Below are positions 9,925-61,260 of a DNA stretch of 64,000 nucleotides, piece by piece. The stretch comes from Candidatus Omnitrophota bacterium (GTDB lineage Bacteria; Omnitrophota; Gorgyraeia; Gygaellales; Profunditerraquicolaceae). The stretch covers positions 85,514 to 149,513 of the forward strand of contig JAQUOD010000001.1 of NCBI GenBank assembly GCA_028717245.1, given 5' to 3'. Each line of letters begins with the position of its first letter. Position 1 is the stretch's first letter. The position numbers and the translations under genes were made by a program. Under the pieces are notes generated by a model. The model did no database searches and was not told the origin of the DNA. It saw only the letters and a list, made by a program, of their open reading frames with translations.

Positions 9925-9947
9925 ATAACTTACGGAACGTAAGTTAT
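9925..9947 (-). repeat. perfect 10-bp palindrome ataacttacg-gaa-cgtaagttat (stem-loop) in rpsH-rplF spacer
   Basis: read directly. Confidence 0.7.
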
Positions 9948-9959
9948 TTGGGCGAATTA

Positions 9960-9983
9960 ATCCGCCAATGCTTTGTGGCGGAT
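9960..9983 (-). repeat. 8-bp stem hairpin atccgcca-atgctttg-tggcggat just downstream of rpsH stop
   Basis: read directly. Confidence 0.6.
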
Positions 9984-9990
9984 ATCCTAG

Positions 9991-10386
9991 TTACCAGATG
10001 TAACCGATAATTTCTCCGCCTGAACCGGAATCCCTTGCTTGTTGGTCGGTAGTGATCCCCTTAGGCGTAGAGACTATGGCTATGCCTCTTCCTCTTAATA
10101 CAGATGGCAGTTTTTTATGTTTTACGTATACGCGCAATCCCGGCTTAGATACGCGGCTTATATTTCTTATCGCGGGCTTTCCCGAAATATATTTCAAATA
10201 GACCCTAAGCAACCCTTGCTTTTTGTCTTCCATGAGCTTGAAATTTTCGATATAATTTTCCTTTTTCAGGATATCTAAAATCGCATTTAACTGCTTAGAG
10301 GCCGGTATATCCACGATTTCTTTTTTTGCCATCATGGCATTGCGTATCATCGCGAAAGCATCCGCAATTAAGTCTGTCCTGGACAT
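9991..10386 (-). CDS. rpsH: 30S ribosomal protein S8
   Basis: 131 aa. Confidence 0.9.
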   Translation of the reverse strand: MSRTDLIADAFAMIRNAMMAKKEIVDIPASKQLNAILDILKKENYIENFKLMEDKKQGLLRVYLKYISGKPAIRNISRVSKPGLRVYVKHKKLPSVLRGRGIAIVSTPKGITTDQQARDSGSGGEIIGYIW

Positions 10387-10426
10387 TTATCCCCCACTTC
10401 GTTCTAATTAACTTGTTAACTGATTT

Positions 10427-10612
10427 TTACCAGCTTGCTTTTCTGACGCCGGGTATCAAACCCTGCCAGACTAACTCCCTAAAACAGATACGGCAGAGCT
10501 TAAACCTTCTCAAGTAACCGCCTGACCTGCCGCAAATAGAACAACGGTTATATTTGCGCGTAGAAAATTTTGGCGCCCTTTTCCATCTTGCTATTTGTGA
10601 ATTTTTAGCCAT
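10427..10612 (-). CDS. rpsN: 30S ribosomal protein S14 type Z (Zn-ribbon, 61 aa)
   Basis: [23 protein letters not shown]. Confidence 0.9.
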
Positions 10613-10620
10613 ATTTTTAG

Positions 10621-11172
10621 TTAATCCCCGCTCTTAAAAGGCATGCCGAATAACCTTAATAATTCCCTGGCCTGTTCTTTATTCTTAGCATTTTTAATTA
10701 CTAAAGTTATATCCATGCCTTGCGGCCGGGTTATCTTATCATAATCTATATCAGGAAAAATGCCCTGTTCCGAAAGGCCCAGGGTATAATTGCCTTTTTC
10801 GTCAAAAGAATCCGGCGAAACGCCCCGGAAATCTCGGATACGGGGCAGGGCAACGTTTACTAACCTATCCAGAAATTCATACATCATTAAGCGCCTGAGA
10901 GTAACCTTGCAGCCTATGGGATGGCCCTCTCTAATTTTAAAGTTCGCGATTGCCTTTTTCGCCCGCCTTAAGATGGGCCTCTGCCCCGTGATCATGGCTA
11001 ATTCTTCCATGGCCTTCTCCAGAATTTTGATATCCTGCATGCCTTCACCCACTCCCATATTTACCACTATTTTTTCCAGGCGCGGGGCTGCCAATTTGTT
11101 CTTTAGGGAAAAGGTCTGGGCTATCTGCGGTGCGATTTCCTTCCTGTATTTTTCTAATAGCCGGGGAGTCAT
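10621..11172 (-). CDS. rplE: 50S ribosomal protein L5
   Basis: 183 aa. Confidence 0.9.
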
Positions 11173-11480
11173 AACACCTCTTTACAGCGTTTACAGATGC
11201 GGGATTTACTTTTGTCTTTTAAAAAGATAAATCCGGCCCTGGCACGACGGTTACAGTTTTTGCAAAAAAGCATAAGATTAGAAAGTTTAATAGGCACCTC
11301 GATAGAAACAACACCGCCCTGCTGGTCTTGTTGCGTCTTACGCCTGTGTTTCTTGGCTAAATTGATGCCCTCTACGAGTGCCCTGCCGGTTGAAGTAATA
11401 ACCTCAAGGACCCTGGCTTTTTTGCCTCTGTCTTTACCTTTAATAACCTCTACGGTATCGCCTTTTCTGATTTTAAACAT
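11169..11480 (-). CDS. rplX: 50S ribosomal protein L24 with C-terminal CxxC...CxxC zinc-ribbon-like tail
   Basis: KOW N-terminus; C-terminus [33 protein letters not shown]. Confidence 0.85.
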
Positions 11481-11504
11481 CGTCTTAACAGCTTTTAATC
11501 TTTT

Positions 11505-11541
11505 AATTACGAGTTACTAGTTACGAGCTTACGAGTTACTG
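11505..11541 (-). repeat. tandem heptamer array TTACGAG/TTACTAG x5 in rplN-rplX spacer
   Basis: aattacgag ttactag ttacgag c ttacgag ttactg. Confidence 0.8.
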
Positions 11542-11545
11542 AAAT

Positions 11546-11914
11546 TTAAATAACTTCCGGTGCTAACGATATAATCTTAGTAAAGTTCTTTTCTCTTAAC
11601 TCTCTGGCCACAGGCCCGAAGACGCGCGTGCCCATCGGGTTTGACTGGGCGTCGATAAATACAATGGCATTGCGGTCAAACCTTAATACAGAGCCGTCGC
11701 TACGCCTTATGGGTTGTTTTGTCCTTACTATGATTGCTTTGGCAACCGTCCCTTTTTTAACTATAGCATCAGGAGAGGATTCTTTTATATTGACATTAAC
11801 GATATCGCCTATTTCGGCGGCGAATCTTCCTTTTCTACCCAGGGGGGCGATGAAAGATGCGCGTTTTGCCCCGGTGTTATCCGCTACATCTAAAATAGTC
11901 CGTAGTTGGATCAT
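11546..11914 (-). CDS. rplN: 50S ribosomal protein L14
   Basis: 122 aa. Confidence 0.9.
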
Positions 11915-11917
11915 ACC

Positions 11918-12190
11918 TTAAGGCTCCTTGACTTCGATATGGGTTTGCGCCTTTTTGATAACTTCGGTTAACCGGAAACGCTTATCTTTTGATAATGGCC
12001 TGGTTTCTTCTATACGCACCACGTCTCCCTGCTTGGCGCTGTTTTTTTCGTCGTGGACTTTAAATTTATTGTGCTTTTTCATAATCCTGCCGTATTTGGG
12101 GTGTTTGCTTATGCGCGTTACCCTGACAATAATAGTTTTCTGCATCCTGTCGCTTATTACCGTACCCGTAAATTCTTTTCTTTTGTCCAT
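11918..12190 (-). CDS. rpsQ: 30S ribosomal protein S17
   Basis: 90 aa. Confidence 0.9.
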   Translation of the reverse strand: MDKRKEFTGTVISDRMQKTIIVRVTRISKHPKYGRIMKKHNKFKVHDEKNSAKQGDVVRIEETRPLSKDKRFRLTEVIKKAQTHIEVKEP

Positions 12191-12195
12191 CTAAT

Positions 12196-12414
12196 TTAGC
12201 CTTTCTTGACTGACGCCTCTGGGGTAGACTTGGAGATTACGCTTAAAACAGTCTGAATCCTGGCGATATCCCGCTTGATTAAAGAAAACATATGGGGTTT
12301 CTCTACCCTGCCGCCGTAACGCTGCATATTAAGTTTGAATAGGTCCTCTTTTAAGGCCTTTTCCTTTTGCAGCAATTCTTCTTTAGAAAGGTTATGTAAA
12401 TCTTGTATTTTCAT
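12196..12414 (-). CDS. rpmC: 50S ribosomal protein L29
   Basis: 72 aa. Confidence 0.85.
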   Translation of the reverse strand: MKIQDLHNLSKEELLQKEKALKEDLFKLNMQRYGGRVEKPHMFSLIKRDIARIQTVLSVISKSTPEASVKKG

Positions 12415-12437
12415 CCCGCTCTTCCTCTTTTATCTAT

Positions 12438-12464
12438 ATCCCTGCCCATTAGGAAGGGCGGGAT
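12438..12464 (-). repeat. GC-rich hairpin in rplP-rpmC spacer sharing 13-nt motif TAGGAAGGGCGGG with the rpmJ hairpin
   Basis: atccctgccc-attaggaa-gggcgggat; motif identical to 5062-5074. Confidence 0.6.
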
Positions 12465-12469
12465 TCATC

Positions 12470-12886: not shown

Positions 12887-12903
12887 TTTGCACCTGTTTT
12901 ATA

Positions 12904-13581: not shown

Positions 13582-13588
13582 CTTTCTC

Positions 13589-14212: not shown

Positions 14213-14214
14213 GG

Positions 14215-15048: not shown

Positions 15049-15051
15049 GGT

Positions 15052-15072
15052 ATTAGAATTACTAGTTACTAA
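15052..15072 (-). repeat. short TTACTAG-family heptamer tract in rplW-rplB spacer
   Basis: tattaga attacta gttacta ag. Confidence 0.5.
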
Positions 15073-28609: not shown

Positions 28610-28620
28610 ATTGTCTATCA

Positions 28621-28722
28621 GGTTACGTAAGGTTGCCTAAGGTTACGTAAGGTTCCATAAAGCTGCCTTTTTTAAGGTAACCTTATGTAACGTTATGGAA
28701 CCCCATGGAACGTTAGGTAACA
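28621..28722 (-). repeat. inverted arrays of 10-mers GGTTNNNTAA forming a ~45-bp imperfect hairpin in rplL-rpoB spacer
   Basis: ggttacgtaa ggttgcctaa ggttacgtaa ggttccataa ... ggtaacctta tgtaacgtta tggaacccca tggaacgtta ggtaac. Confidence 0.8.
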
Positions 28723-29149: not shown

Positions 29150-29221
29150 GTATCAAAGTATCAGGTATCAAGGTATCAAAGTTTTTTCTTTGACACTTTT
29201 GACACATTGATACTTTGACAC
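29150..29221 (-). repeat. GTATCAA/TTGACAC inverted octamer arrays (hairpin, loop ttttttc) in rplJ-rplL spacer, directly upstream of rplL RBS
   Basis: gtatcaaagtatcaggtatcaaggtatcaaag-ttttttc-tttgacacttttgacacattgatactttgacac. Confidence 0.85.
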
Positions 29222-29225
29222 TATT

Positions 29226-29753
29226 TTAGTTTTCTTTCTTCTTCTTTATCTGCTCTAAACAATAAACTAATTTTCTTAAATTCCCCTTAAGAACCATTAC
29301 TAAACCAAAGATAGGTGATTTTAAAGCCATTACAGCCTGATATCTCAAAATTTCCTTACAGGGAAGCCGGGCCATCCTTTCGATATCTTTTTTATCCAGG
29401 ATCTTGTCTTCTAAAAATCCTGCTTCTAATTTTAACTGTTCATGCTCACGGAAAAAGCCATATAACACGCGCGAGGTATCTACTGGTTCTTCTTTGGCAA
29501 ATACTAAACCGCAGGGCCCCTCTACGGACTTAATTAAACCTTCTAAACCGGAGTCTTTCAGGGCGCGCCTGGCTACGCTATTTTTGGTCACGAAGAGCTT
29601 GGCCTTTGCGCCTTTTAGCGATTTCCTCAGGGTAGTCAGATCCGGACTGGATAATTTCGAATATCCCACGATAAAAAGGCCCTGCGATTCCTTAAAATAT
29701 TTTTTAAGGCGGTTTTCCAGAGTTTCCCTGAATACTAAACCCAGTTTTTTCAT
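29226..29753 (-). CDS. rplJ: 50S ribosomal protein L10
   Basis: 175 aa. Confidence 0.9.
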   Translation of the reverse strand: MKKLGLVFRETLENRLKKYFKESQGLFIVGYSKLSSPDLTTLRKSLKGAKAKLFVTKNSVARRALKDSGLEGLIKSVEGPCGLVFAKEEPVDTSRVLYGFFREHEQLKLEAGFLEDKILDKKDIERMARLPCKEILRYQAVMALKSPIFGLVMVLKGNLRKLVYCLEQIKKKKEN

Positions 29754-32044: not shown

Positions 32045-32117
32045 AGCTGGAGACGGGAATCGAACCCGTGACCCCGTCCTTACCAAGGACGTGCTCTACC
32101 GACTGAGCTACTCCAGC
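32045..32117 (-). tRNA. tRNA-Thr (anticodon GGT), no encoded CCA end
   Basis: GCTGGAGTAGCTCAGTCGGTAGAGCACGTCCTTGGTAAGGACG...GGTTCGATTCC...CTCCAGCT. Confidence 0.9.
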
Positions 32118-33362: not shown

Positions 33363-34300
33363 CTGTATGCGAGCATGGTTGCCTCAATTAATGATGCGGG
33401 ATTGGCCAACCGGTAGTTTTTTGCGATATCAAAGGCAGTCCCGTGTAAAGGAGATGTTCTGATAAAAGGAATGCCCAATGTCAAATTTACACCGCTAAAG
33501 CCGGCTGATACCTTCAAAGGGATTAATGCCTGGTCGTGATACATGGCAATCATGCAGTCGTATTGTTTTTGCAGTGTTTTTAAGGCTGCTATATCCGCCC
33601 CCTGCGGCCCGGCTATGCTTATGCCTTTTATTTTTTTTCTTAAAAGCGACAGAACAGGTTTAATCACCCTATTTTCTTCCTTTCCTATCAGCCCATTATC
33701 AGAGGCGTGCGGATTAAGCCCGCACAATACGATGCGCGGGTTTCTTGTACGGAAGAGTTTTTTTAAGGATTCATAAGTTAAAATTACGGTTTGAAATATT
33801 GCTTTTTTGCTTAAGCATAGGGGGACGTCTTTTAAAGCAATGTGGCGCGTAACCAGGGTGATTTTTAATTTTTTATTTAAAAGCATCATGGCAAAATTTT
33901 TCGTATTTGTAACAGAGGCCAAATATTCCGTATGCCCGCTGAAATTTTTAAACCCCGCCAAACTCACTGCCTCCTTGGATATAGGGCAGGTAACCAGAGA
34001 ATCTATCTTGTTATGATTAATTAAATCCATTGCCTTATCCAGGTATTCTATGGATGCCTTGCCATATTCAGCCCGCATTTCACCGAATCTAAAATTTTTA
34101 CGTGCTACATTATTTAAATCTATAAATTTTATATCTGACACCTGACACCTGGCACCTGACACCTGATTAAATACCCACCTATCTCCTATGATAACAAAAT
34201 CAGCCAAACCTCTTAATTGAGGTATTGCTTTAGCGATAATAGCAGGGCCTACACCCGCCGGGTCGCCTATGGTAATGCCGATTTTTATTTTATTATGCAT
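33335..34300 (-). CDS. pdxA: 4-hydroxythreonine-4-phosphate dehydrogenase
   Basis: IGITIGDPAGVGP..., HTEY, synteny surA-pdxA-rsmA. Confidence 0.9.
   Translation of the reverse strand: MHNKIKIGITIGDPAGVGPAIIAKAIPQLRGLADFVIIGDRWVFNQVSGARCQVSDIKFIDLNNVARKNFRFGEMRAEYGKASIEYLDKAMDLINHNKIDSLVTCPISKEAVSLAGFKNFSGHTEYLASVTNTKNFAMMLLNKKLKITLVTRHIALKDVPLCLSKKAIFQTVILTYESLKKLFRTRNPRIVLCGLNPHASDNGLIGKEENRVIKPVLSLLRKKIKGISIAGPQGADIAALKTLQKQYDCMIAMYHDQALIPLKVSAGFSGVNLTLGIPFIRTSPLHGTAFDIAKNYRLANPASLIEATMLAYRCTLNQKKD
34135..34165 (-). repeat. in-frame tandem heptamer tract CACCTGA/CACCTGG x4 inside pdxA (encodes periodic QVSGARCQVS)
   Basis: ctgacacctgacacctggcacctgacacctg. Confidence 0.8.
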
Positions 34301-34310: not shown

Positions 34311-34392
34311 CCGTAATCCGTAATTGGTAATTCGTAATTCTTATTTTATTTTAAAAAATTACGATTTACGATTTATGAATTACGATTTACGG
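34311..34392 (-). repeat. inverted heptamer arrays CCGTAAT x4 / ATTTACG x5 (hairpin) in pdxA-surA spacer
   Basis: ccgtaatccgtaattggtaattcgtaatt ... aattacgatttacgatttatgaattacgatttacgg. Confidence 0.85.
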
Positions 34393-34417: not shown

Positions 34418-35365
34418 TTAATCTTGCATAATTTTAATATAAGACTGCTTTTTGAGTTCGTCCAACCACGTTGCTAATGCCTCTTGCATCTTTTGGTCAA
34501 AAAGGAAGGTATAAATATCACCCTGGGCCCCAGAGATACTTTGCTGCCGGGGGGGTATTATATTATCCAGTTTAAAAATATAATATTGTTCTTCTATTTT
34601 GACCGGTGCGGAGATTTCACCTACCTTCAACCTGAATATTTTTTCTTCGATGTCTTTTCTCAACTGCCCATTCCCTGCCCCGCTCATTTTATTTACAGCC
34701 AGGAAATATTTACTGGCGACATCCTGAAATTCCTGCCCATTCCTTAAATCATTAAAGACTTTGCTCGCCAGGTCCTCTTCACCGGTATTTATGGATTCAA
34801 ATTCGCGCTGTTCGGGTAGTTTAAATTTATCGATGTTTTGCTGATAGAAATCGGTGACTTCTGCGGGATTAACCAGAATCTTGCTCTTTATCTTTATTTC
34901 GATAATAGTATACATAAGCAGCTGGTCTCTTATCTTTGATTCTAAGTCTGCCTGCACCAGCCCTTGCTTAGCCAGGGAAGTTTGAAAATCCTTCTCTGAA
35001 TCGTAACGCCTGCGGATATCGTCTATCCTAGCTTTGATCCTGCTCTCGTCTATTCTGATATTGCTTTTTTTGGCTTCCTGTAAAATAATGCGGTCTTCAA
35101 TAAGCTTGTCCATTAAATCCAGCTTTATAGATTGCATTTTACTTTCCAGGCTTCTCCCTTTAAATTCTCCCATTAATTGTACGCGCGTAAAATTAACGAA
35201 GTCGTCTAAGTCTTTCTGGGTGATGACATCGTTATTCACGATAGCGACGATTTTGTCTTCGGCGTGTAAGTTGTAAGCTGTAAGTTGTAAGCTGTAAGCA
35301 ATGGAAAAAAGCAAAAATAATGATATTTTTAAACCCTTTAACCCTTGGTTTTTGATTTTATCCAT
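34418..35365 (-). CDS. surA: SurA-like periplasmic chaperone/peptidyl-prolyl isomerase (signal peptide, short form)
   Basis: 315 aa, N-terminal signal peptide; position upstream of pdxA-rsmA as in E. coli. Confidence 0.6.
   Translation of the reverse strand: MDKIKNQGLKGLKISLFLLFSIAYSLQLTAYNLHAEDKIVAIVNNDVITQKDLDDFVNFTRVQLMGEFKGRSLESKMQSIKLDLMDKLIEDRIILQEAKKSNIRIDESRIKARIDDIRRRYDSEKDFQTSLAKQGLVQADLESKIRDQLLMYTIIEIKIKSKILVNPAEVTDFYQQNIDKFKLPEQREFESINTGEEDLASKVFNDLRNGQEFQDVASKYFLAVNKMSGAGNGQLRKDIEEKIFRLKVGEISAPVKIEEQYYIFKLDNIIPPRQQSISGAQGDIYTFLFDQKMQEALATWLDELKKQSYIKIMQD
35264..35299 (-). repeat. in-frame tandem heptamer tract (C/T)TGTAAG x5 inside surA signal-peptide region (encodes AYSLQLTAYNLH)
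   Basis: gtgtaag ttgtaag ctgtaag ttgtaag ctgtaag c. Confidence 0.8.
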
Positions 35366-40062: not shown

Positions 40063-40125
40063 GTATCAAAGTGTCAGGTATCAGGGTATCAAAGTTTTTT
40101 CTTTGATACTTTGATACTTTGACAC
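40063..40125 (-). repeat. GTATCAA/TTGATAC inverted octamer arrays (hairpin, loop ttttttc), paralogue of the 29150-29221 element; abuts trpE stop and rpsP RBS
   Basis: gtatcaaagtgtcaggtatcagggtatcaaag-ttttttc-tttgatactttgatactttgacac. Confidence 0.85.
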
Positions 40126-41612
40126 TATTTAACAATTGCCTCTATTAATGCCTTTGCCTTGTTTATAGATTCCTGGTATTCATTTTTTGGCACCGAATCA
40201 GCGACGATACCGGCACCTGCCTGAATATATGCCATCCCATCTTTAATAATTACGGTCCGAAGGGTTATGCAGGTATCCATATTATGCGAAAAGCTGAAAT
40301 ACCCTACGCATCCGGCATAGGGCCCGCGCCTTAAATTTTCCAGCTCGTCTATAATTTCCATAGCGCGTATCTTAGGGCTGCCGCTTACTGTCCCGGCGGG
40401 AAAACAGGCCCTTAAAACATCGTAGATATTATATCTCTTATCCAAAATACCCTCAACTTCACTGACTATATGCATTACGTGGGAGTATCTTTCTATGGAC
40501 ATAAACTCACTCACCGCTACCTTGCCTTTTTTACAGACCTTGCCTAAATCATTCCTGCCTAAATCTACCAGCATCAGGTGTTCTGCGCGTTCTTTCTTAT
40601 CTTCAAGAAGCTCCTTTTCTAATTGCTTGTCTTCTTTTTCATTTTTCCCGCGGGGCCGGGTACCGGCAATAGGCCGGGTGCGGGCAATGCCGTCTTCACA
40701 GCGTACCAGTATCTCAGGAGAAGAGCCGACTAAGGTAACTTCCTTTAATTTCAAAAAAAACATATAGGGAGAAGGGTTCAGGCTCCTTAAATCCCTGTAG
40801 ATATCGAAGGGGTCTTTATCTATCTTTATTTCAAAGCGCTGCGACAATACTGTCTGGATGATATCCCCCTTTTTTATATAATCCCTCGCCTTATTTACTA
40901 TTTTACAAAATTCCTTTTCTTTAAAGTTAGAAATTACTTTTATGCTGCGCTTACCAGTATCATTACGCTTTGCTTTCTTGAGCAAGGGTTTCTTCAGTTC
41001 ATTGCATATGGAATCTATTTTTTTCAGCGCCTGATAATAAATCTGCGTTTTTTTAACCCGGGGGATTTTTTTATGCGCCGGCAGGATAATGTTAACAATG
41101 ATCTTTATGGTATGGTTAATATGGTCAAAGACTAGGATGCTATCGGTAAGTATAAAGACGGAATCGGCGATCTTTAGGTCATCCGGATTTCTATCGGGCA
41201 GGTCCTCAAAGAACCTTACCATATCATAAGCCATGAAACCCACGAGCCCTCCGTAAAAGCGCGGTAGTTCTTTAATCCGGGCGGCCTTAAAATCCTGCAT
41301 GATTTTTTTAATTTCATCCAGGGGGTCATTGCGGGTAACAAAATGCCTGGCTGAACTTCTTGCAGGATAAATGACCCGGACATCCCTGCCTTTACTTCTA
41401 AAAATAAGCGCGGGGTTACTCCCTAAGAAAGAATAGCGGGCGATCTTTTCCTGTCCTTCTACGGACTCAAGGAGAAAGGCATAATCGCCTTTTTTTATTT
41501 TTAAGAAGGCAGACACAGGCGTATCTAAATCCGCGCTGATCTCCTGATAAACCGGAATAAGATTATATTTTTTAGATAGTTCCAGAAATTCTTTTAGTGA
41601 TGGATAGTACAT
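40125..41612 (-). CDS. trpE: anthranilate synthase component I
   Basis: TPVSAFLKI, LLESVEGQEKIARYSF motif. Confidence 0.8.
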   Translation of the reverse strand: MYYPSLKEFLELSKKYNLIPVYQEISADLDTPVSAFLKIKKGDYAFLLESVEGQEKIARYSFLGSNPALIFRSKGRDVRVIYPARSSARHFVTRNDPLDEIKKIMQDFKAARIKELPRFYGGLVGFMAYDMVRFFEDLPDRNPDDLKIADSVFILTDSILVFDHINHTIKIIVNIILPAHKKIPRVKKTQIYYQALKKIDSICNELKKPLLKKAKRNDTGKRSIKVISNFKEKEFCKIVNKARDYIKKGDIIQTVLSQRFEIKIDKDPFDIYRDLRSLNPSPYMFFLKLKEVTLVGSSPEILVRCEDGIARTRPIAGTRPRGKNEKEDKQLEKELLEDKKERAEHLMLVDLGRNDLGKVCKKGKVAVSEFMSIERYSHVMHIVSEVEGILDKRYNIYDVLRACFPAGTVSGSPKIRAMEIIDELENLRRGPYAGCVGYFSFSHNMDTCITLRTVIIKDGMAYIQAGAGIVADSVPKNEYQESINKAKALIEAIVK

Positions 41613-41622: not shown

Positions 41623-41676
41623 GAGCTTTAAGTTGTAAGCCATAAGCTTAAAGCTTAGAGCTTACAGCTTATAGTC
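41623..41676 (-). repeat. heptamer array AGCTTAN (consecutive agcttaa agcttag agcttac agcttat) with inverted partner; overlaps hisI stop codon
   Basis: gagctttaagttgtaagccataagcttaaagcttagagcttacagcttatag. Confidence 0.85.
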
Positions 41677-44010: not shown

Positions 44011-44639
44011 AATTCTACAAAATTTTTCAGTATTTTTAAACCGGTTTCCTGGCTTTTCTCAGGATGAAACTGCACGCCGTATATATTCTCCCGCCAAAGA
44101 ACCGGGCTAAAGCTAATCCCGTATTCAGTAGTAGCAGCGATGATATCTTTATCCTTGGGTTGCGGATAATAGGAATGGCAGAAATATACGTAAGCATTAT
44201 CCGGTATATCTTTTAACAGGGGGCATTCCTTTGACACCTTGACACCCTGACACCTTGATACTATTTTCAACTGGTTCCAGCCCATATGCGGGACCTTCAA
44301 ATTGCCTTTAATTTTAAATTTCTTTACCTCGCCTTTTAATATCCCTAATCCTTTTATCCCTTTTGCTTCATCGCTTCTCTCAAAGAGAAGCTGCATCCCT
44401 AAACAGATACCCAGAAATATCTTTTTTGCCTTAATATGCTCCTTTAGCGCCGTCAACAGATCCTGTTTCTTTAATTCTGCTACAGCATCGGCGAATGCCC
44501 CTACCCCCGGCAATACTACCTTATCACAAACCTTGATATCTGCGGGCTTGTTGGTAACTATTGTCTTTGCGCCCATAGACTCTAAGGCCTTTTGCACGCT
44601 ATGAATATTTCCCATGCCGTAGTCAATTATGGCAATCAT
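44004..44639 (-). CDS. hisH: imidazole glycerol phosphate synthase glutaminase subunit
   Basis: MIAIIDYGMGNIHSV..., GICLGMQ, HSY. Confidence 0.9.
   Translation of the reverse strand: MIAIIDYGMGNIHSVQKALESMGAKTIVTNKPADIKVCDKVVLPGVGAFADAVAELKKQDLLTALKEHIKAKKIFLGICLGMQLLFERSDEAKGIKGLGILKGEVKKFKIKGNLKVPHMGWNQLKIVSRCQGVKVSKECPLLKDIPDNAYVYFCHSYYPQPKDKDIIAATTEYGISFSPVLWRENIYGVQFHPEKSQETGLKILKNFVELC
44229..44262 (-). repeat. in-frame octamer tract TTGACACC x3 inside hisH (encodes SRCQGVKVSKE; about 9-aa insertion relative to HisH homologs)
   Basis: ctttgacaccttgacaccctgacaccttgatactatttt. Confidence 0.8.
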
Positions 44640-46482: not shown

Positions 46483-49097
46483 TTTAGTTCCCTGATAATC
46501 TCTTTAAGTTTCTTGAATGCCTGCGGAAAATTCTCCGGTTTATTTCCCCCTGCCTGGGCAAAATCCTTCCTGCCTCCGCCGCTACCGCCGATTTCCGGGG
46601 CGATTGCTTTTATTATCTTAGCGCTATCAATATCTAAAATTTGCGTATTTAAATTTGTACCCGTAACCAACAGGGCCCCTCCAACGGAAGTAGTTGTCCC
46701 TAAGGCAACGATAACGCTTTTTTCCTTCGCTTTGATTAAATCCACGGCCTTTCTTAAGGCGTCCATATCCTGGCCTTCAATAAAACGGGCGATAACATTA
46801 ATACCGTTAATAATTTCTCCCTCTTTAATATAATTATCTATTGAGGCTCTAAGCATATCCGTCTTGCGGTAACTTAGCTTTTTTTCCAGTTCTTTTATCT
46901 GAAATAGCTTCTTCTCTAATTCCTGGGTTATCTTTTGGCTAGGGACATTTAAAAGAGAAGAAATATCAGCCAGGATATTCTCTTCTTCCTTAAGCGCCTT
47001 ATAGGCACAATCTCCTGTAAGCGCTTCTATCCTTCTTATCCCGCTGGCTATCGACCCCTCGTTAACTATCTTAAAGAGCCCGATTTGGCCGGTGCATTCA
47101 AGGTGTGTTCCGCCGCAGAGTTCTTTAGAGAAATCTCCGATTGCTACCATACGCACCTTTTCTGCGTATTTCTCCGTAAAGAATGCCAATGCCCCTTGTC
47201 TTTTAGCCTCTGCGAGGGTCAGCGTCTTTGCCTTCAAGCACGTATTATTTACTATGTAGTTATTGACTAATCCTTCTATTCTATCCAACTGTTCCCTAGT
47301 CACATCCTTAAAATGCGTAAAGTCAAAACGTAATCTATCTTCGGCTACTAATGAACCTTGCTGTTGCACATGCGCTCCCAAAATTACGCGTAATGCTGCC
47401 TGCAATAGGTGTGTGGCAGTATGATTTCTGGCTATGGATAGCCTGCGTTTAATATCCACACAGGACATTAACTCATCTGTGGTTCTAAAACTTCCGGTTT
47501 TTACCCTTCCTTTATGCACAATAACATTATCAAATTTACGGGTACCGGTTATCTGAAAGACATTCTTCCCTTTTATCAATTCACCCGTATCGCCTACCTG
47601 GCCGCCGGATTCAGGGTAAAGAACGGTTTTATCTAAAATTATCCGGGCCTCTTCGCCCGCGCTTATTTTTTTTACCGGAGTATTATCTTTAATAATCTTG
47701 ATAACCTTTGCCTTTGTCTCGTATTTGGAGTAACCCAGAAAACTAGTCTTAGCGCCTGCTAAATGCAATTCTTTAATATCAAAGACATCGCCTTTCATCC
47801 GACTCTGTAATTTAGAACGGTTTTTCTGCTCTCCTAATTCCTTATCAAATGCCTCCTGCGAGAAATTTATGCCGGCTTTCTCCAGCCAACCCCTGGTTAA
47901 CTCTAAAGGTATCCCGTAGGTATCGTACAACTGAAAGGCAAGCCTGCCGGCCCTTTGCGCGTCCTGCTTATTACTAAAACCCTTAAATTTTTCTTCAAAC
48001 AAAACGCTGCTAGAATCTAAAGTAGAAATAAAATTATTCTCTTCAGCCAGAATAATCTGGGAGATATTTTCTTTACGTTTATCCAACTCTGGATATGGCA
48101 ACTTCATAATATCGGATAAAAGAGGGGTTAATTTATAAAGAAAAGGTTTAGCTATCCCTAACGCCCTTAAATGCAGCATGCTTTTACGGATTATTTTTCT
48201 TACTACATACCCGCGGCCTTCATTAGAAGGCAATACGCCATCATAAATAGCAAAAACAATGGCACGTATATGGTCACTAACAGCATAAATAAATTCCTTA
48301 TCTGACACTTTGACACTTTGACACTTTGACACTATCTCTTTCACTATGGGTTGGAATAAATCCGTTTCAAAATTATTCGGCACCCCCTGCATAACCGCTG
48401 CCAATCTTTCCAGCCCCATACCCGTGTCAATATTCTTTTTGGGTAAAGGTTCTAATTTTCCGTCTGCTTTGCGGTTAAATTGTGTAAACACTAAATTCCA
48501 TATTTCCGGGAACCTGCCGCAACTGCAAGCCGGGCCGCAGCCAGGCTTCCCGCAACCTGCGCCCTGGTCAAAGAATATCTCAGAACATGGCCCGCATGGC
48601 CCATTTGGGCCGTTAGCTTTGGCTTCTGATGGCCAGAAATTTTCTTTATCGCCTAATTTTACGATTTTATTTACCGGAACCTTTATTTTATCTTTCCATA
48701 TGTTATACGATTCATCATCGTCTTTATATACAGAAACCCAGAGTTTATCTTCTTTAATCTTAAGCTCTTCGGTCAGGAACTCCCACGCCCAGGTAATTGC
48801 CTCTTCCTTAAAATAGTCCCCGAAAGAAAAATTTCCCAGCATCTCAAAAAAGGTATGGTGAGACGGGGTCTTGCCTACCTTATCTAAATCATCGGTGCGC
48901 AGGCAGCGCTGGCTGCTGGCAGCGCGGCTAAAACCGGTTAAATGCCCCAGGAATTGCCTCTTGAATTGGTTCATTCCGGCAGGAGTAAATAATACGGTAG
49001 GGTCGTCCTTGGGGATAAGCGAATCGCTTTCTACGATTTTATGCTTTTTAGCTTTAAAAAAGATGGGGAATTTTTCTCTTAATAAATCCGCTTTCAT
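46479..49097 (-). CDS. alaS: alanine--tRNA ligase
   Basis: start MKADLLREKF at 49097 overlapping recX stop (ATGA..TAA); ORF-track start 49154 is an extension. Confidence 0.9.
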   Translation of the reverse strand: MKADLLREKFPIFFKAKKHKIVESDSLIPKDDPTVLFTPAGMNQFKRQFLGHLTGFSRAASSQRCLRTDDLDKVGKTPSHHTFFEMLGNFSFGDYFKEEAITWAWEFLTEELKIKEDKLWVSVYKDDDESYNIWKDKIKVPVNKIVKLGDKENFWPSEAKANGPNGPCGPCSEIFFDQGAGCGKPGCGPACSCGRFPEIWNLVFTQFNRKADGKLEPLPKKNIDTGMGLERLAAVMQGVPNNFETDLFQPIVKEIVSKCQSVKVSDKEFIYAVSDHIRAIVFAIYDGVLPSNEGRGYVVRKIIRKSMLHLRALGIAKPFLYKLTPLLSDIMKLPYPELDKRKENISQIILAEENNFISTLDSSSVLFEEKFKGFSNKQDAQRAGRLAFQLYDTYGIPLELTRGWLEKAGINFSQEAFDKELGEQKNRSKLQSRMKGDVFDIKELHLAGAKTSFLGYSKYETKAKVIKIIKDNTPVKKISAGEEARIILDKTVLYPESGGQVGDTGELIKGKNVFQITGTRKFDNVIVHKGRVKTGSFRTTDELMSCVDIKRRLSIARNHTATHLLQAALRVILGAHVQQQGSLVAEDRLRFDFTHFKDVTREQLDRIEGLVNNYIVNNTCLKAKTLTLAEAKRQGALAFFTEKYAEKVRMVAIGDFSKELCGGTHLECTGQIGLFKIVNEGSIASGIRRIEALTGDCAYKALKEEENILADISSLLNVPSQKITQELEKKLFQIKELEKKLSYRKTDMLRASIDNYIKEGEIINGINVIARFIEGQDMDALRKAVDLIKAKEKSVIVALGTTTSVGGALLVTGTNLNTQILDIDSAKIIKAIAPEIGGSGGGRKDFAQAGGNKPENFPQAFKKLKEIIRELK
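48302..48333 (-). repeat. in-frame octamer tract TTGACACT x4 inside alaS (encodes SKCQSVKVSDKE)
   Basis: ctgacactttgacactttgacactttgacact. Confidence 0.8.
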
Positions 49098-51073: not shown

Positions 51074-52099
51074 TTATGCTAAGGAGATTTTCTTACGGAT
51101 TTCTTTTTCTATCTCTTCCTGTAATTTTGGTTTTTCTCTCAGCGCCTTTACTGCCTGGTCTCTTCCTTGGCCAAGCTTCTCGCCTCCAAAAGAAAGCCAG
51201 GTCCCGGTTTTCTCGATAATTTCTAAATTCACCGCGGCATCTATAACGCTGCCGGGCTTGACAATGCCTTCATTATGCATGATTTCAAATTCTGCCTCGC
51301 GAAAAGGAGGGGCTACTTTGTTTTTAACTACCCTGGCCCTGACCCGGTTGCCGATAACCATATCGCCGGATTTTAGGGTAGCAATCCTTCTTAAATCCAG
51401 CCTTACAGAGGCATAAAATTTTAGTGCCCGTCCCCCGGGCGTGGTTTCCGGCGAACCAAACATTACGCCGATTTTTTCCCTGATCTGATTAATAAAAATC
51501 ACGCAGGTGCGCGACTTGCTGATGGCCGCGGTAAGTTTACGCAGTGCCTGCGACATCAGCCGGGCCTGCAAACCCATATGCGAATCTCCCATCTCGCCTT
51601 CTATTTCCGCGCGGGGAGTAAGCGCGGCTACGGAATCAATCACCACCATATCTACGGCATTTGAACGCACTAATGTCTCGGCAATCTCCAGCGCCTGTTC
51701 TCCGGTGTCCGGCTGAGAAATCAAAAGTTCGTCTAAATTTACCCCGATAATCTTAGCATAAGTAGAATCAAAGGCGTGTTCGGCATCAATAAAAGCAGCA
51801 ACTCCGCCTTTCTTCTGAATTTCCTTGATTACGCTTAAGGTGAGCGTAGTCTTACCTGAAGCCTCTGGACCGAAAATCTCGATTACCCTGCCGCGGGGAA
51901 GGCCGCCTACGCCTAAGGCAACATCCAAAGTAAGCGCGCCCGTAGGGATGGCCTCTACGTCTACTTTTATGTCCCCGCCCAGCTTCATAATTGAACCTTT
52001 ACCGAATTGTTTTTCTATCTGGGAGAGCGCCAATTCCAGTGCTTTTTGACGGTCAGAAATGTCCTTTGCGCCTTCTTTCTTTATGTCTTTGGTAACCAT
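51074..52099 (-). CDS. recA: recombinase RecA
   Basis: [13 protein letters not shown], 341 aa. Confidence 0.95.
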
Positions 52100-52173: not shown

Positions 52174-52401
52174 CCATACTTAACATTTAACGGGTGGCTT
52201 GGTTTGGTTTCGCACAGCAGTTTTAAAGGGGACCCCGCGAGTGGGTGTGGGCGAGGAAAATTTGACGAGTACACACCCTAAAAGCAGGGGATATTTTTAA
52301 TCCCTGTGGGAAGCAAAACAAGACAGCCGCAATAAAAATCCCTCCTTTCTACTCCTAATAGACGCAGGAGTAAGAAAAATCTAACAGTCAGTCCTCCTGG
52401 C

Positions 52402-52430
52402 TTGACAATAAGCTGAAAATATGTTAGATT
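52402..52430 (+). promoter_or_regulatory. candidate sigma70 promoter for GGDEF gene: TTGACA-17-TAGATT, start codon ~10 nt downstream (near-leaderless)
   Basis: cTTGACAataagctgaaaatatgtTAGATTtataacattATG. Confidence 0.4.
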
Positions 52431-52439
52431 TATAACATT

Positions 52440-53606
52440 ATGGAAGAGATAAATAAAATCAAACAAGAAATCGAGCGCACCAAAACCGAACTGGCTATCC
52501 TTTATGAAATATCCAATGCCATGCGTACCACTCTTAAGCTGGATGAAATACTCTACATTATCCTGACCGGGGTCACCGCGCATATAGGATTGGGGTTTAA
52601 CCGCGCCATCCTCTTTTTAGTCAACGAAAAAAATAGTGTTATCGAAGGTAAAATGGGTATTGGCCCGGGAGACGGCGAAGAAGCTAATCAAATCTGGACC
52701 AGGGTAGAACGCGAGCAGATGGATTTAGACGACCTGATTAATGCTTATAAGGTTTCTAAGGATATCCTGGAATCCAGCTTCAACCAGCAGATACGCGCCC
52801 TGAAGATGCCCTTAAAAGAACAAAATGGCGGATTACTGGCTTTGGGGGTACTGGAGGGCATGCCTTTGCATCTAACCGCTGAAACCATACAAAACTATAG
52901 TAAGGATCCTATTATACGGATATTAAAGGCTGATGAGTTGGTAGTAATCCCCCTGAAAGCAAAGGATAAAGTAAACGGAATAATTTTAGCAGATAATTTT
53001 ATTACTAAAAAGCCTATTACCAAAGATGATATACGCATGCTGATTATGCTGGCTAACCAGGCGGGTCTAGCCGTTGAGAATTCACAACTTTACGAAAAAG
53101 CCGTTATCCGCGCCCATACTGACTTGCTTACCGAACTTTATAATCATGGGCATTTCCAGTACCTTTTATCTACAGAGATAGAGAAGGCAAAGGCGAGTTC
53201 CCTTCCTTTAAGCCTGATTATGCTGGATATCGATAATTTTAAGGTCTATAACGATGCGCTCGGGCATCAGGCCGGGGATAAAATCTTAAAGGCGCTGGCG
53301 TTGCTGCTAAAGAACCAATCCCGCAAAATGGATTATGTCTGCCGTTACGGCGGGGAGGAATTTACCATTATCCTGCCGCAGACGGAAAAAAAAGAGGCGT
53401 TCTTAATCGCTGAACGCCTGAGGATGGATATTGAAAAATACACCTTTATCAATGAAGAAATCCTGCCTAATAAAAAATTAACCGTGAGTATGGGTTTGGG
53501 TTCTTACCCGGAAAACGGGGCTACTGCCTCTGATTTAATCACCAGTTCTGACCAAGCCCTCTATCAGGCCAAGCATAAAGGAAAAAATAATACCTGCTGT
53601 TGTTAA
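52440..53606 (+). CDS. diguanylate cyclase with N-terminal GAF-like sensor domain
   Basis: RYGGEEF motif, LIMLDIDNFKVYND. Confidence 0.85.
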   Translation: MEEINKIKQEIERTKTELAILYEISNAMRTTLKLDEILYIILTGVTAHIGLGFNRAILFLVNEKNSVIEGKMGIGPGDGEEANQIWTRVEREQMDLDDLINAYKVSKDILESSFNQQIRALKMPLKEQNGGLLALGVLEGMPLHLTAETIQNYSKDPIIRILKADELVVIPLKAKDKVNGIILADNFITKKPITKDDIRMLIMLANQAGLAVENSQLYEKAVIRAHTDLLTELYNHGHFQYLLSTEIEKAKASSLPLSLIMLDIDNFKVYNDALGHQAGDKILKALALLLKNQSRKMDYVCRYGGEEFTIILPQTEKKEAFLIAERLRMDIEKYTFINEEILPNKKLTVSMGLGSYPENGATASDLITSSDQALYQAKHKGKNNTCCC

Positions 53607-56851: not shown

Positions 56852-56863
56852 CGCCTCTCCTTG

Positions 56864-57055: not shown

Positions 57056-57067
57056 AGTATTGTTTTA

Positions 57068-57096
57068 ATTATAAAGAAAAAAACAAAATTTGTCAA
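57068..57096 (-). promoter_or_regulatory. perfect-consensus sigma70 promoter TTGACA-17-TATAAT for the HTH-smc pair; predicted transcript is leaderless or near-leaderless
   Basis: rc reads TTGACAaattttgtttttttcttTATAATtaaaacaataATG. Confidence 0.5.
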
Positions 57097-58634: not shown

Positions 58635-58643
58635 ATCTTTTTT

Positions 58644-58702
58644 GGCACCTGGTGCAAATTCAATCGGGTACCTGGTGCGAATTTAAGATTGTACCTGTCC
58701 CC
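58644..58702 (-). repeat. 57-nt element copy A (two CACCTGGTGC palindromes 23 nt apart) in etfB-etfA spacer
   Basis: ggcacctggtgcaaattcaatcgggtacctggtgcgaatttaagattgtacctgtccc; about 90% identical to 60671-60728. Confidence 0.8.
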
Positions 58703-58706
58703 AGCG

Positions 58707-59486
58707 CTATACCTGGACCTGCAATAGCTCTACTAATTGCGCGGCAATCTCAGGAATCTCACCCTTAAGTATCTGGCCACCGGTTCTCTGAGGAGGAGTA
58801 AAAATCTTCACTACTTGCGTAGGAGAACCGCATAATCCGATCTGTTGGGGATCTAAATTTAGTTCTTTCTGCGTCCAGAGGGTAATTTTAGCCTGCTTAG
58901 CGCGCATCATCCCTTTTAAAGAGGGCAGCCGCGGTTCATTTATCTCTTTGACCACAGTTAAAAGCGCCGGCAGGGGTACTTCAATTATCTCAAAACCCTC
59001 TTCCATTAATCTCTCTACGCGCAGAGTTTTTTCTTTTATCTCTTCTATCTTTTTGACATAAGTAACCTGGGGTATGTCTAAATGCGTGGATATCCCCGGC
59101 CCAACCTGGGCAGTGTCGCCGTCAGAGGCCTGCTTACCGCAGATAATTAAATCAAACCCCCCTATTTTTTTGATGGCAGCGGATAAGGTATAACTGGTGG
59201 CCCAGGTATCGCTTCCGGCAAAGGCGCGGTCGCAAACCAGGATACCTTCATCTATGCCCATGGAAATCGCTTCTCTTAAGGCCGCTTCTGCCTGCGGAGG
59301 ACCCATAGTAATCACCGTGACCTTGCCGCCGGTTTTTTCTTTCAGCCGCACTGCCTCTTCAATAGCATACATGTCAAAGGGATTAATAATGGACTTTACC
59401 CCTTCGCGGATTAAGGTATTCGTTTCCGGGTTAATTTTTACTTCGGTGGTTTCCGGGACCTGTTTGATGCAGACGATGATATTCAT
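58707..59486 (-). CDS. etfB: electron transfer flavoprotein beta subunit
   Basis: MNIIVCIKQVPE... Confidence 0.9.
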   Translation of the reverse strand: MNIIVCIKQVPETTEVKINPETNTLIREGVKSIINPFDMYAIEEAVRLKEKTGGKVTVITMGPPQAEAALREAISMGIDEGILVCDRAFAGSDTWATSYTLSAAIKKIGGFDLIICGKQASDGDTAQVGPGISTHLDIPQVTYVKKIEEIKEKTLRVERLMEEGFEIIEVPLPALLTVVKEINEPRLPSLKGMMRAKQAKITLWTQKELNLDPQQIGLCGSPTQVVKIFTPPQRTGGQILKGEIPEIAAQLVELLQVQV

Positions 59487-59500
59487 TTTCAGCCTTAAGC

Positions 59501-60652
59501 TTATTTAGCCATTTCTTTGATTAACTGCAATGCGATAATGTTACGCTGAATCTGGTTTGTACCTTCGTAAATTTGGGTAATCTTGGCATCGCGCATATAT
59601 TTTTCCGCGGGATAATCCCTCATATAACCGTAACCGCCGAGTATCTGTACGGCATCAGTAGTAACTTTCATGGCTACGTCTGAGGCATACATCTTGGCCA
59701 TGGCCGAATCCTTGCCTACGTCTTTACACCCGCCATCTATTTCCCTGGCGCAGGAATAAACTAAGGCCCGGGCAGCTTCAATTTCCGTAGCCATATCTGC
59801 CAACATCCATTGTATACCCTGAAAGCTAGCTATGGTTTTACCAAACTGCTGCCTCTCTTTAGCATATTTTACCGCCACATCCAGCGCCCCCTGGGCAATA
59901 CCTAAGGCTTGAGCAGCTACTCCCGGCCGCGACATATCAAAGGTCTTCATAGTCACGATAAAACCCATGCCTTCTCTGGATAAAAGATTTTCTTTGGGGA
60001 TTTTGCAATCAGTGAAAATAAGTTCACGCGTTGAAGAAGCGCGGATGCCTAATTTTTCTTCTTTTTTACCAAAGGTAAAACCAGGCGTGCCCTTTTCTAC
60101 TATAAATGCCGAAGCACCCCGAGCCCCCTTAGTCTTATCCGTCATGGCAATAACCGTATAGACATCGGCATCCCCGCCGTTAGTAATAAAGTGTTTAAGG
60201 CCATTTAAGATATAATGGTCCCCGTCTTTACGCGCAGTAGTCTTAATGCCGGAGGCATCAGAACCTGCTTCCGGTTCAGTAATGCCGAAGGCAGCGATTT
60301 TTTTGCCTTTTGCCAGCTCCGGCAGGTATTTTTTCTTCTGCTCGTCATTGCCGAATAAGACAATCGGAAATGTCCCTAAGGCCGAGGCAGCATAGCATAC
60401 CGCGATACCTCCGCAGGCACGCGATAATTCTTCGGTAGCAATACACAAGTTTAATACGCTGTTAGCCATACCGCCATACTCAGCAGGAATAAATAAACCG
60501 AATAAATCCGCATCCGCAATGATCTTGATAATTTCCCAAGGGAATTCTTCGGTTTGATCGTGTTTGGCCGCTACCGGGCGGATCTTCTCGTCGGCGATTT
60601 TACGCGCCAGTTCCTGAATCATCTTTTGTTCGTCACTTAGCAGGTAATCCAT
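59501..60652 (-). CDS. acyl-CoA dehydrogenase (butyryl-CoA dehydrogenase-like)
   Basis: 383 aa ACAD fold; adjacent to etfBA. Confidence 0.85.
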
Positions 60653-60670
60653 CCCTTCCTCCTAAAAATT

Positions 60671-60728
60671 AACACCTGGTGCAAAGTCAATCGGGCACCT
60701 GGTGCGAAACTAATCTTGTACCTGTCCC
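60671..60728 (-). repeat. 57-nt element copy B in the 5'UTR of the acyl-CoA dehydrogenase gene, between predicted promoter and RBS
   Basis: aacacctggtgcaaagtcaatcgggcacctggtgcgaaactaatcttgtacctgtccc. Confidence 0.8.
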
Positions 60729-60746
60729 TTTAAATAAATCTTAAGA

Positions 60747-60774
60747 ATTATACCATACTGAAATTATTTTACAA
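60747..60774 (-). promoter_or_regulatory. candidate sigma70 promoter TTGTAA-16-TATAAT for bcd-etfBA; -35 overlaps the GNAT gene stop codon
   Basis: rc reads TTGTAAaataatttcagtatggTATAAT. Confidence 0.4.
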
Positions 60775-61218
60775 GGTTTTTAGAAGGGCGATTTCCTGGC
60801 AATTGGGGAATTTGCAGCAGTTAATGCATTCTGCCCAAATTTTATGGGGGAGAGCAGAATTCTTTACTCTTTTGAACCCGAATTTCTTAAAATACCCGGG
60901 CTGATAGGTAAGCACAAATATCCTCCTGGCTGCTAAGGCCCTGGCTTCATTTAAACATGCCAGGATTAATTCCCTGCCTATACCCTTGCCTTGTTTTTGT
61001 TTGGCTACGGCCAGGGATTTTATCTCCGCCAGGTCCTCCCAGGAGATATGTAAAGCACAACAACCGATAATTTTCCCGCCTTCTTCAATTACCCAGAAAT
61101 CCCGCAAGTTTTCATATAATTCATTAAGCGAGCGCGGTAACATCAGGTCCTGTTTGGCAAAAAAATTAATCAAACCCTGTATTTGTTTTATATCTTTTAT
61201 CTTTGCTTTTCTAATCAT
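60769..61218 (-). CDS. GNAT-family N-acetyltransferase with C-terminal Cys cluster (CINCCKFPNC)
   Basis: 149 aa; acetyl-CoA binding motif QKQGKGIGRELI. Confidence 0.7.
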   Translation of the reverse strand: MIRKAKIKDIKQIQGLINFFAKQDLMLPRSLNELYENLRDFWVIEEGGKIIGCCALHISWEDLAEIKSLAVAKQKQGKGIGRELILACLNEARALAARRIFVLTYQPGYFKKFGFKRVKNSALPHKIWAECINCCKFPNCQEIALLKTL

Positions 61219-61224
61219 CTTCTT

Positions 61225-61260
61225 CGGCTTATAGCTTACAACTTATGGCTTACGGCTATT
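61225..61260 (-). repeat. tandem heptamer array (G/A)GCTTA(T/C) x5 overlapping glgC stop codon
   Basis: cggcttat agcttac aacttat ggcttac ggctatt. Confidence 0.8.

Follow-up and report, generated by a model that had tools for sequence, protein, structure and literature searches.

Arrays of 7-8-nt repeats, many of them palindromic, occupy recurrent positions in Omnitrophota operons while their repeat units turn over

The window analysed here is a 64-kb stretch of a metagenome-assembled genome (MAG) of Candidatus Omnitrophota, and all coordinates count from its start. It has a G+C content of about 44%, is transcribed nearly entirely from the minus strand, and carries ribosomal-protein operons, tuf, fusA, rpoBC, rplKAJL, nusG, ksgA, pdxA, a peptidyl-prolyl isomerase (PPIase) gene, an mfd-like helicase gene, secDF, trpE, most of the his genes, alaS, htrA, SMC and the acd-etfBA operon. 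Scattered among these genes are arrays of tandem 7-8-nt repeats, about half of which are followed by a second array of the reverse-complement unit. Related genomes carry such arrays at the same positions but built from other units, and it is this combination of fixed place and changing sequence that is described and interpreted below.

The arrays were detected with Tandem Repeats Finder (TRF; period 6-10, at least 3 copies). There are 18 TRF arrays in the window compared with a mean of 0.65 in 40 dinucleotide-preserving shuffles, an excess of about 28-fold, so the arrays, which had been proposed from a sequence-only reading of this DNA, are real and exceed what composition predicts within the window. 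Sorting by reading of the sequence and by folding of both strands gives 13 array sites, fewer than the 16 or more originally claimed; seven are pairs of a direct and an inverted array and six are one-armed. At a paired site the direct array is followed by an A/T-rich loop of about 4-25 nt and then by the reverse-complement array, and the whole folds as a 30-40-bp imperfect hairpin of -20 to -38 kcal/mol. The one-armed sites give no hairpin on folding. Some arrays combine 7- and 8-nt units. The recurrent units belong to three families: A (GTRTCAA[R]), B (GCTTANA/TNTAAGC) and C (TTACGAN/CGTAAT), the last of which also takes in the 10-mer GGTTACGTAA. The 13 sites are as follows.

28620-28721, rplL-to-rpoB spacer: 10-mer palindromic pair found by TRF, AGGTTACGTA x3.5 then GTAACCTTAT x4.5, with folding energies of -33 kcal/mol (sense strand) and -38 kcal/mol (antisense strand)
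29150-29222, rplJ-to-rplL spacer: two 8-mer arrays of family A (GTRTCAA) that form a palindromic pair around an A6 loop
31964-32034, 10 nt downstream of tRNA-Thr (32045-32117, minus strand): family A palindromic pair, inverted relative to the copy at 29150
34312-34391, PPIase-to-pdxA spacer: family C palindromic pair of 7-mer arrays, CGTAATT and TTACGAT
40063-40126, between the trpE stop (its TAG is the first unit) and the rpsP Shine-Dalgarno (SD) sequence: family A palindromic pair
41623-41671, hisI-to-trpE spacer: family B (GCTTANA/TNTAAGC) palindromic pair, overlapping the hisI stop codon
42766-42817, spacer from the peptidoglycan-binding protein gene to hisF: family B palindromic arrays, the upstream TAG stop being the first unit
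11507-11539, rplN-to-rplX spacer (gene names deduced from size and from place in the operon): one-armed array of family C, TTACGAG x4.6, without a hairpin (dG -3 to -8 kcal/mol)
61225-61257, spacer from an NTP-transferase gene to a GNAT gene: one-armed degenerate family B array, CGGCTTA x4.7
34135-34166, minus strand, in frame within pdxA: family A, sense GGTGTCA x4.6, residues 45-56 (NQVSGARCQVSD)
35265-35299, minus strand, in frame within the PPIase open reading frame (ORF): family B, sense GCTTACA x5, residues 23-34 in the signal-peptide region
44231-44258, minus strand, in frame within hisH: family A, sense GGTGTCAA x3.5, residues 128-137 (SRCQGVKVSK)
48303-48333, minus strand, in frame within alaS: perfect family A 8-mer array, sense AGTGTCAA x3.9, residues 274-284 (VSKCQSVKVS)

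Non-coding DNA makes up 5.2% of the window and holds 431 of the 573 array bases. The sequence-only reading had placed the arrays in spacers, usually as a direct array followed by its reverse complement, with each locus able to fold as a hairpin. The first part is right for most array bases, but four further arrays, which it did not list, lie within the intact ORFs of pdxA, PPIase, hisH and alaS; the second part describes the seven paired sites and fails at the six one-armed ones. A further proposed site, at 15052, is below the threshold of TRF, with no more than about two copies, which are weak. The array at 29150 was recovered in two independent Logan assemblies from two samples (L001 and L002, L-numbers denoting related metagenome loci), both contigs stopping within the array, and it is therefore not an assembly artefact specific to the window.

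Such arrays had been taken as specific to this locus, but they are a lineage-wide trait, found in many Omnitrophota. The nearest genome representatives reached through ribosomal protein L10 are Omnitrophota MAGs. A metagenome scan with alanyl-tRNA synthetase (AlaRS) gave 80 related loci with 56-72% identity and a total of about 1.1 Mb, over which synteny is well conserved. Many of them carry 7-8-mer arrays, at densities of up to 4.4 per 10 kb, compared with 2.8 in the window and about 0.1 expected by chance. A tree of AlaRS has a star-like shape, with the lineages that bear arrays dispersed over it. In another Omnitrophota MAG (L003, ribosomal protein L10 83% identical) the rplL-rpoB spacer again holds a direct and inverted pair of 10-mer arrays, with a diverged unit, and the rplJ-rplL spacer holds a heptamer array different from that of the window.

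The turnover of units at a fixed position is seen within alaS, where the arrays sit in a variable AlaRS loop between the conserved segments LFQPIVKEI and IYAVADHIRA. The unit in this loop is AGTGTCAA in both the window and L015 (VSKCQSVKVS), GTGTCAG in L025 and L071 (VSGVRCQVSG), GCCGCAG in L011, GTATCGA in L033, GTTACGG in L037 and GTCAGCT in L057 and L084. This amounts to six different units in eight relatives, and in several further lineages the array is recognisably decayed. Self-similarity at lag 7 or 8 lies above the 99th percentile of the null in ten of the 80 loops, lag 7 being the commonest best lag, and the length of the loop is equal to within 1-2 aa in most lineages. In L027 the same loop (~5091-5417) encodes the family A peptide VSKC...QSVKV interrupted by a 9-aa insertion, SATETLADR, with the frame kept; apparently this is an old array that was interrupted and then held in frame.

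Two his genes behave in the same way. The hisH loop (WNQLK to ECPLLKDIP) contains arrays with other units in L032, L053, L061, L069 and L077, and in L018 a palindromic pair that adds 17 aa. In hisF, an insert of 20-23 aa follows AIDAK in frame in L009, L011, L015, L037 and L055, and is lacking in the window. The insert is a full palindromic array pair in L009 (TAGTTCA/AACTACG), L011 (CAGTCCA/CTATCGA) and L015 (GGAGCTC/AACTCCC), and only one detectable array is left in L037 and L055. The palindromic inserts of relatives in these two genes are 60-100 nt long, in frame and built of microsatellites.

Among the spacers, those of trpE-rpsP, hisI-trpE, hisH-hisA, hisD-hisB and the peptidoglycan-binding gene-hisF junction have arrays in 4-8 lineages each, with differing units; at the last of these the lineages include L009, L037, L038, L061, L077 and L079. 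The trpE-rpsP hairpin has an orthologue in L015 that is 77% identical, and counterparts with other units in at least eight other lineages, and its arms are complementary across at least seven different unit pairs. The same positions are thus occupied across deeply diverged lineages while the unit is replaced wholesale, which is concerted evolution. A composite form occurs in two his-operon spacers of L045 (15230-15428 and 17961-18059), where a 10-mer array of TTGGTATTTA lies inside a longer repeat unit of about 65 nt; it is far longer than any other array seen.

Occupation of these positions is not obligatory. At each junction most lineages have overlapping genes or a tiny spacer, and a minority have a spacer of at least 45 nt. 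These longer spacers are nearly always strong hairpins (10/11, 10/11, 9/9, 6/6 and 15/20, by junction). In L089, the closest relative found (TrpE 87%), only 16 nt separate the trpE stop from the rpsP SD, compared with a 75-nt hairpin in the window, and the hisI-trpE spacer has an AT-rich heptamer palindrome in place of the family B pair. Comparison with the empty site of L089 reveals no recognisable target-site duplication at the trpE-rpsP insertion. The array element as a whole is an inverted repeat whose presence or absence differs between relatives, and the elements are dispensable.

Sites of one genome tend to share their units. A repeated 6-mer is common to 36 of 167 pairs of different sites within a genome, compared with 8.0 expected (0/500 and 0/1000 permutations), and to 17 of 86 pairs, compared with 3.5 expected (0/1000), when the window and duplicate loci are left out. 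Sharing of units is much commoner between sites of one genome than between genomes. Whole elements are alike as well. In the window, the copies at 29150 and 40063 are 79% identical over 106 nt, including a 12-nt tail that is not part of the repeat; those at 29150 (minus strand) and 31964 (plus strand) are 86% identical, including irregular short units; and the family B copies at 41623 and 42766 are 80% identical. The identity of 79-86% between copies of the same family covers irregular units and flanks, and both orientations occur. Units common to the sites of one genome, together with whole elements that have flanks in common, indicate that sequence is copied between sites.

The arms are also uniform in length. 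Over 91 arrays, from the window and from L003-L087, the median is 31 nt with an interquartile range of 27-34. Fifty of the 91 have 4.0-4.9 copies, only 8 have five or more, and there is an abrupt drop above five. The peak holds for the one-armed arrays within ORFs too.

The explanation favoured here, with a probability of about 0.5, is that the arrays are selfish or neutral palindromic microsatellite elements that perpetuate themselves at the DNA level in permissive sites. Each arm would be made of 4-5 tandem units of 7-8 nt (~31 nt), often paired with its reverse complement, and the elements would occupy the few permissive spots of compact operons, namely the gaps between stop codon and SD and the variable surface loops of proteins. 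Replication slippage would homogenise the units within an arm, hairpin-templated (quasipalindrome) correction would hold the arms complementary, and ectopic conversion or transposition would spread a family through the genome. Selection would only filter the location of elements: a hairpin in a spacer would keep the upstream stop near the start site downstream, and a loop would tolerate an insert that is in frame. Effects on mRNA processing, mRNA stability or the binding of nucleoid proteins would be secondary. The sequence-only reading had already preferred an active process, such as slippage plus inversion or a miniature mobile element, over one conserved regulatory site. That idea fits the evidence, given the unit turnover at fixed positions, the sharing of units within genomes, the copies with 79-86% identity, and the presence and absence of elements in close relatives.

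Several observations weigh against this explanation. The window and L015, whose AlaRS are 67% identical, share both the 8-mer array in alaS and the 77% identical trpE-rpsP hairpin with its flanks, whereas a closer relative differs. Such sharing is not readily ascribed to neutral drift and suggests either constraint or horizontal spread of the family. Simple slippage does not predict a length peak at about 31 nt; the footprint of a protein, or else a templated process, could lie behind it. Within alaS, hisH or pdxA, slippage by a single unit would shift the reading frame, so homogenisation in ORFs needs a mechanism that is neutral in length. Finally, there is no transposase or other candidate enzyme among the genes of the 64-kb window.

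An alternative, considered unlikely, is that the arrays act as intercistronic stem-loops of the polycistronic mRNA, where they would be processed by RNase III or would block 3'-exonucleases and so set the relative expression of neighbouring cistrons in operons without terminators, like the E. coli repetitive extragenic palindromic (REP) elements and the rplL-rpoB processing site. The positions speak for it to some extent, since seven sites of the window and most spacers of at least 45 nt in relatives are strong hairpins between a stop codon and an SD, the rplL-rpoB spacer has a hairpin in both the window and L003, and the complementarity of the arms survives the turnover of units. The hairpins are also not intrinsic terminators, as the initial description had noted for these spacers: no array hairpin in the window is called as a terminator on the sense strand, the stems being AT-rich and followed by the SD of the next gene, and terminator-like matches are not enriched (27 vs 20.1 +/- 4.6). 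But the folding is symmetrical. Of 66 foldable sites, 31 fold more stably on the sense strand and 26 on the antisense strand (Wilcoxon p=0.96), and G-U and A-C show no asymmetry between strands of the kind that selection on an mRNA hairpin would leave. Copies stand in both orientations relative to transcription, the six one-armed arrays of the window offer no stem, and arrays or even whole hairpins lie inside ORFs, where the hairpin is markedly weaker on the sense strand (in L011, -21 compared with -48 kcal/mol on the antisense strand). Most lineages do with overlapping junctions, and the closest relative has no trpE-rpsP hairpin.

What can be seen of selection concerns translation. As its 7- or 8-nt period cycles through the three frames, a tandem array of TTGACAC or TGTAAGC reads TGA or TAA in one of them, and the one-armed arrays in ORFs have the sense-strand orientation that avoidance of stop codons demands. 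Where a single TAGTTCA unit of the L009 hisF insert would place TAG in frame, it reads GAGTTCA instead. Taken together, the strand symmetry, the two orientations, the weaker sense hairpins in ORFs and the avoidance of stops give no pointer to selection on mRNA structure; the visible filter acts on the reading frame of the protein. Rfam at its gathering threshold finds only the two tRNAs in the whole window, and at a permissive threshold it finds nothing in the non-array motifs.

The family A unit TTGACAC includes the sigma-70 -35 hexamer TTGACA, and three arrays give promoter-like matches. The match at 31971-31944 (minus strand), a short way downstream of tRNA-Thr, is in the sense direction, and those at 29199-29227 and 44239-44267 (plus strand) are antisense to rplJ and hisH. 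In the promoter enrichment test, such sites are not enriched overall.

It is also improbable, although the uniform arms lend it some weight, that the arrays are sites or substrates of a lineage-specific trans-acting protein, whether an IHF/HU-like nucleoid protein, a multimeric RNA-binding protein, or an enzyme of RAYT/HUH type that copies hairpins. Each unit family would then correspond to one specificity, and 4-5 units would fill one footprint. Such a protein would explain why the arms keep so tightly to about 31 nt or 4-5 units, a number that matches the "four or five repeats" of Geobacter (PMC2700814) and the modal four units of Xanthomonas (PMC4692102). It would also explain why a genome has few unit families, each common to several sites, and why the identical family A unit and hairpin flanks are found in lineages as distant as the window and L015; strand symmetry fits recognition at the level of DNA. 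On the other hand, the window offers no candidate gene for it, many sites would have to be altered in step whenever the specificity changed, the sites are dispensable in close relatives, and a regulatory site in the middle of alaS, hisH, hisF or pdxA has no obvious rationale.

A bolder version is a long shot: the arrays could be the cis part of an undescribed trans-acting system of the Omnitrophota, in which an enzyme or a nucleic-acid-binding complex with a footprint of about 30 nt, or four to five units, writes, copies or maintains its cognate arrays. If this were true, the system would act even in essential genes without changing their length, and may have arisen convergently in Geobacter and Xanthomonas. 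The unit families would evolve together with it and now and then pass horizontally between lineages, and the whole would be a partnership like that of REPIN and RAYT, working on microsatellites.

Chance microsatellites or assembly artefacts without a common biology are hardly credible: short-read contigs often end at arrays (e.g. L062 compared with L061), a sign that these are hard to assemble, but the excess over shuffles, the in-frame position of arrays in conserved ORFs, the recurrence of positions over 80 loci, and the same arrays in independent assemblies or samples (L001 and L002, L025 and L071, L057 and L084, L072 and L074) all contradict this, and the artefact envisaged in the sequence-only reading is rejected. 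In practical terms, the arrays break the short-read assembly of these genomes and put repeat-encoded peptides into housekeeping enzymes.

The junctions that hold arrays also host unrelated palindromic elements, among them a family resembling MITEs (miniature inverted-repeat transposable elements), which argues that they are general landing sites for palindromic DNA. The MITE-like family accounts for a spacer at 9925-9990 that had been counted among the arrays but holds a copy of this separate conserved palindrome. The copy lies between rpsH and rplF (~9905-9962, minus strand) and forms the hairpin AATTCGCSC..AACTTACG-loop-CGTAAGTT..GSGCTCATTAA-ATG. The element occurs also in L012, L015, L019, L025, L027, L042, L057, L061 and others, and stands directly before a start codon in 6 of 8 regular-expression matches. 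A consensus of 19 pairs from seven sequences includes 6 pairs with double compensatory changes. A covariance model built for the hairpin gives 36 matches in 1.2 Mb of Omnitrophota loci, and these are often inverted pairs 50-130 nt apart. This arrangement is MITE-like; the element has no match in Rfam. A derivation of family C, with its TTACG core, from the stem AACTTACG was considered, but the likeness is limited to a 5-mer.

Two other proposed array sites, at 58644 and 60671, are likewise of a different kind. They are two copies of an element of about 60 nt (58647-58697 and 60671-60720) with a 23-nt direct repeat (sense TTGCACCAGGTRCC...), and stand in the acd-etfB-etfA operon, one directly upstream of etfA and the other directly upstream of the gene for acyl-CoA dehydrogenase. 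This element could be an operator or a leader, and it too lacks an Rfam match. In relatives, hairpins of the form TGA-ACCCCGCACCTTC...GAAGGTGCGGGG-TG occur at junctions that elsewhere are 4-nt overlaps of stop and start (L009, L012, L032, L041 and L054, at alaS-hisD and hisF-hisI, with a variant in L011, L030 and L068). Their stop and start codons lie at the base of the stem, which suggests a hairpin inserted into the overlap so that stop and start were left adjacent. Palindromes of GATTACACAGATT are also present in relatives. In the window itself, the only large plus-strand gene encodes a GAF-GGDEF diguanylate cyclase (52440-53606), the remaining genes being housekeeping genes. It lies between a 341-aa ORF (51074-52099) and SMC, and overlaps a minus-strand ORF of 101 aa (52278-52583), probably a spurious one.

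Rickettsia palindromic elements (RPEs) are palindromes of about 100-150 bp with a family consensus, and REP elements occupy intra-operon spacers. RPEs are said (Ogata et al. 2000) to be inserted in frame in protein-coding genes and translated as extra loop segments, and REP families are reportedly linked to RAYT transposases and marked by conserved GTAG or CGTC tags (Bertels & Rainey 2011). The arrays resemble both types (for background on REP elements, see PMC3733652) in being short dispersed palindromes of compact genomes with genome-specific families. The comparison with REP/BIME and RPE elements made in the sequence-only reading is apt as a resemblance. Like RPEs, the palindromic pairs in hisF and hisH of relatives are translated in frame. 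However, the arms of RPE and REP elements are unique sequence and not tandem microsatellites. The ends of the array elements in the window show no conserved GTAG or CGTC tag, and the palindromic inserts in hisF and hisH of relatives have neither a consensus common to lineages nor homology to RPEs.

Closer parallels exist, contrary to the initial impression that no element of this structure had been described; both Geobacter metallireducens (PMC2700814) and Xanthomonas (PMC4692102) show the architecture. In G. metallireducens, Aklujkar et al. 2009 (PMC2700814) list "global regulator binding sites" of classes 1-3, with 24, 21 and 8 site pairs. In these, octa-, nona- or heptanucleotide units (GTTGCTYN x4, TCTCCGTS[Y] x3 and MTYCTGA x5) stand in 3-5 tandem copies, and most sites have a partner on the opposite strand; the intra-operon spacer proB-proA is among the sites. 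A further element, Gmet_H4, has four copies of the heptamer GGGACCG at 49 sites between and within genes. All of these are absent from G. sulfurreducens, and the authors read the sites, as a putative role, as binding sites of IHF/HU. The likeness to the Omnitrophota arrays lies in the several families per genome, the tandem hepta- and octamers paired on opposite strands, and the restriction to a lineage. The differences are that the Geobacter units are others and the phylum another, that the distance between paired sites is variable there instead of a loop of about 4-25 nt, and that fixed positions with turnover of units are not reported.

Under the name of long simple-sequence repeats, heptanucleotide arrays figure in Mrazek et al. 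2007 (as cited in PMC4692102 and PMC4679880). A Xanthomonas genome contains about 185 GGGAATC arrays, mostly of four units; they are mainly intergenic, and 7-11% lie within genes (Rehm et al. 2015, PMC4692102). Between 70 and 75 convergent pairs per genome are capable of forming stem-loops, and positions are conserved between species with variation in length and sequence; Nostoc has arrays of the heptamer GGGGAYT (PMC4692102). Each of those genomes has a single G-rich family with the potential to form G-quadruplexes, in contrast to the several families of the Omnitrophota, whose units are AT-rich and free of G-tracts. TAACTGA repeats occur in Beggiatoaceae, cyanobacteria and Bacteroidetes, ribosomal operons and ORFs included (MacGregor 2015, PMC4679880). 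The cyanobacterial short tandemly repeated repetitive (STRR) and TAACTGA heptamers are dispersed, with few families per genome, and occupy spacers including those of ribosomal-protein operons. They are found occasionally in ORFs, in orientations limited by their stop-codon content, and close strains differ by indels in 7-nt steps (PMC4679880). TAACTGA sets are mostly direct repeats right upstream of start codons, often without a recognisable SD, and only one indirect repeat is reported (PMC4679880). The Omnitrophota arrays, in contrast, adjoin the upstream stop codon, are followed by the SD, and form palindromic pairs in about half of cases.

The window shows the marks of both long simple-sequence repeats and paired arrays, namely an excess of tandem 7-8-nt repeats, several families, pairing at 7 of 13 sites, as at many sites of relatives, and a mostly intergenic location. 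By these sequence features the architecture is already known, and the arrays appear to join the mechanistically unexplained kind seen in Geobacter, Xanthomonas and cyanobacteria, although no description of them in the Omnitrophota was found in the literature searched. For 35 years, dispersed arrays of heptamers have been on record from several phyla with no accepted origin or function. To the earlier cases the Omnitrophota data add fixed sites, turnover of units, sharing between sites and in-frame palindromes. Conserved synteny over about 80 sampled lineages allows one site to be watched as it keeps its array while the unit is replaced and both arms change together, and one unit to be traced to unrelated sites of a genome, in-frame ones of alaS, hisH and hisF among them; with this handle the question of by-product or functional element becomes tractable.

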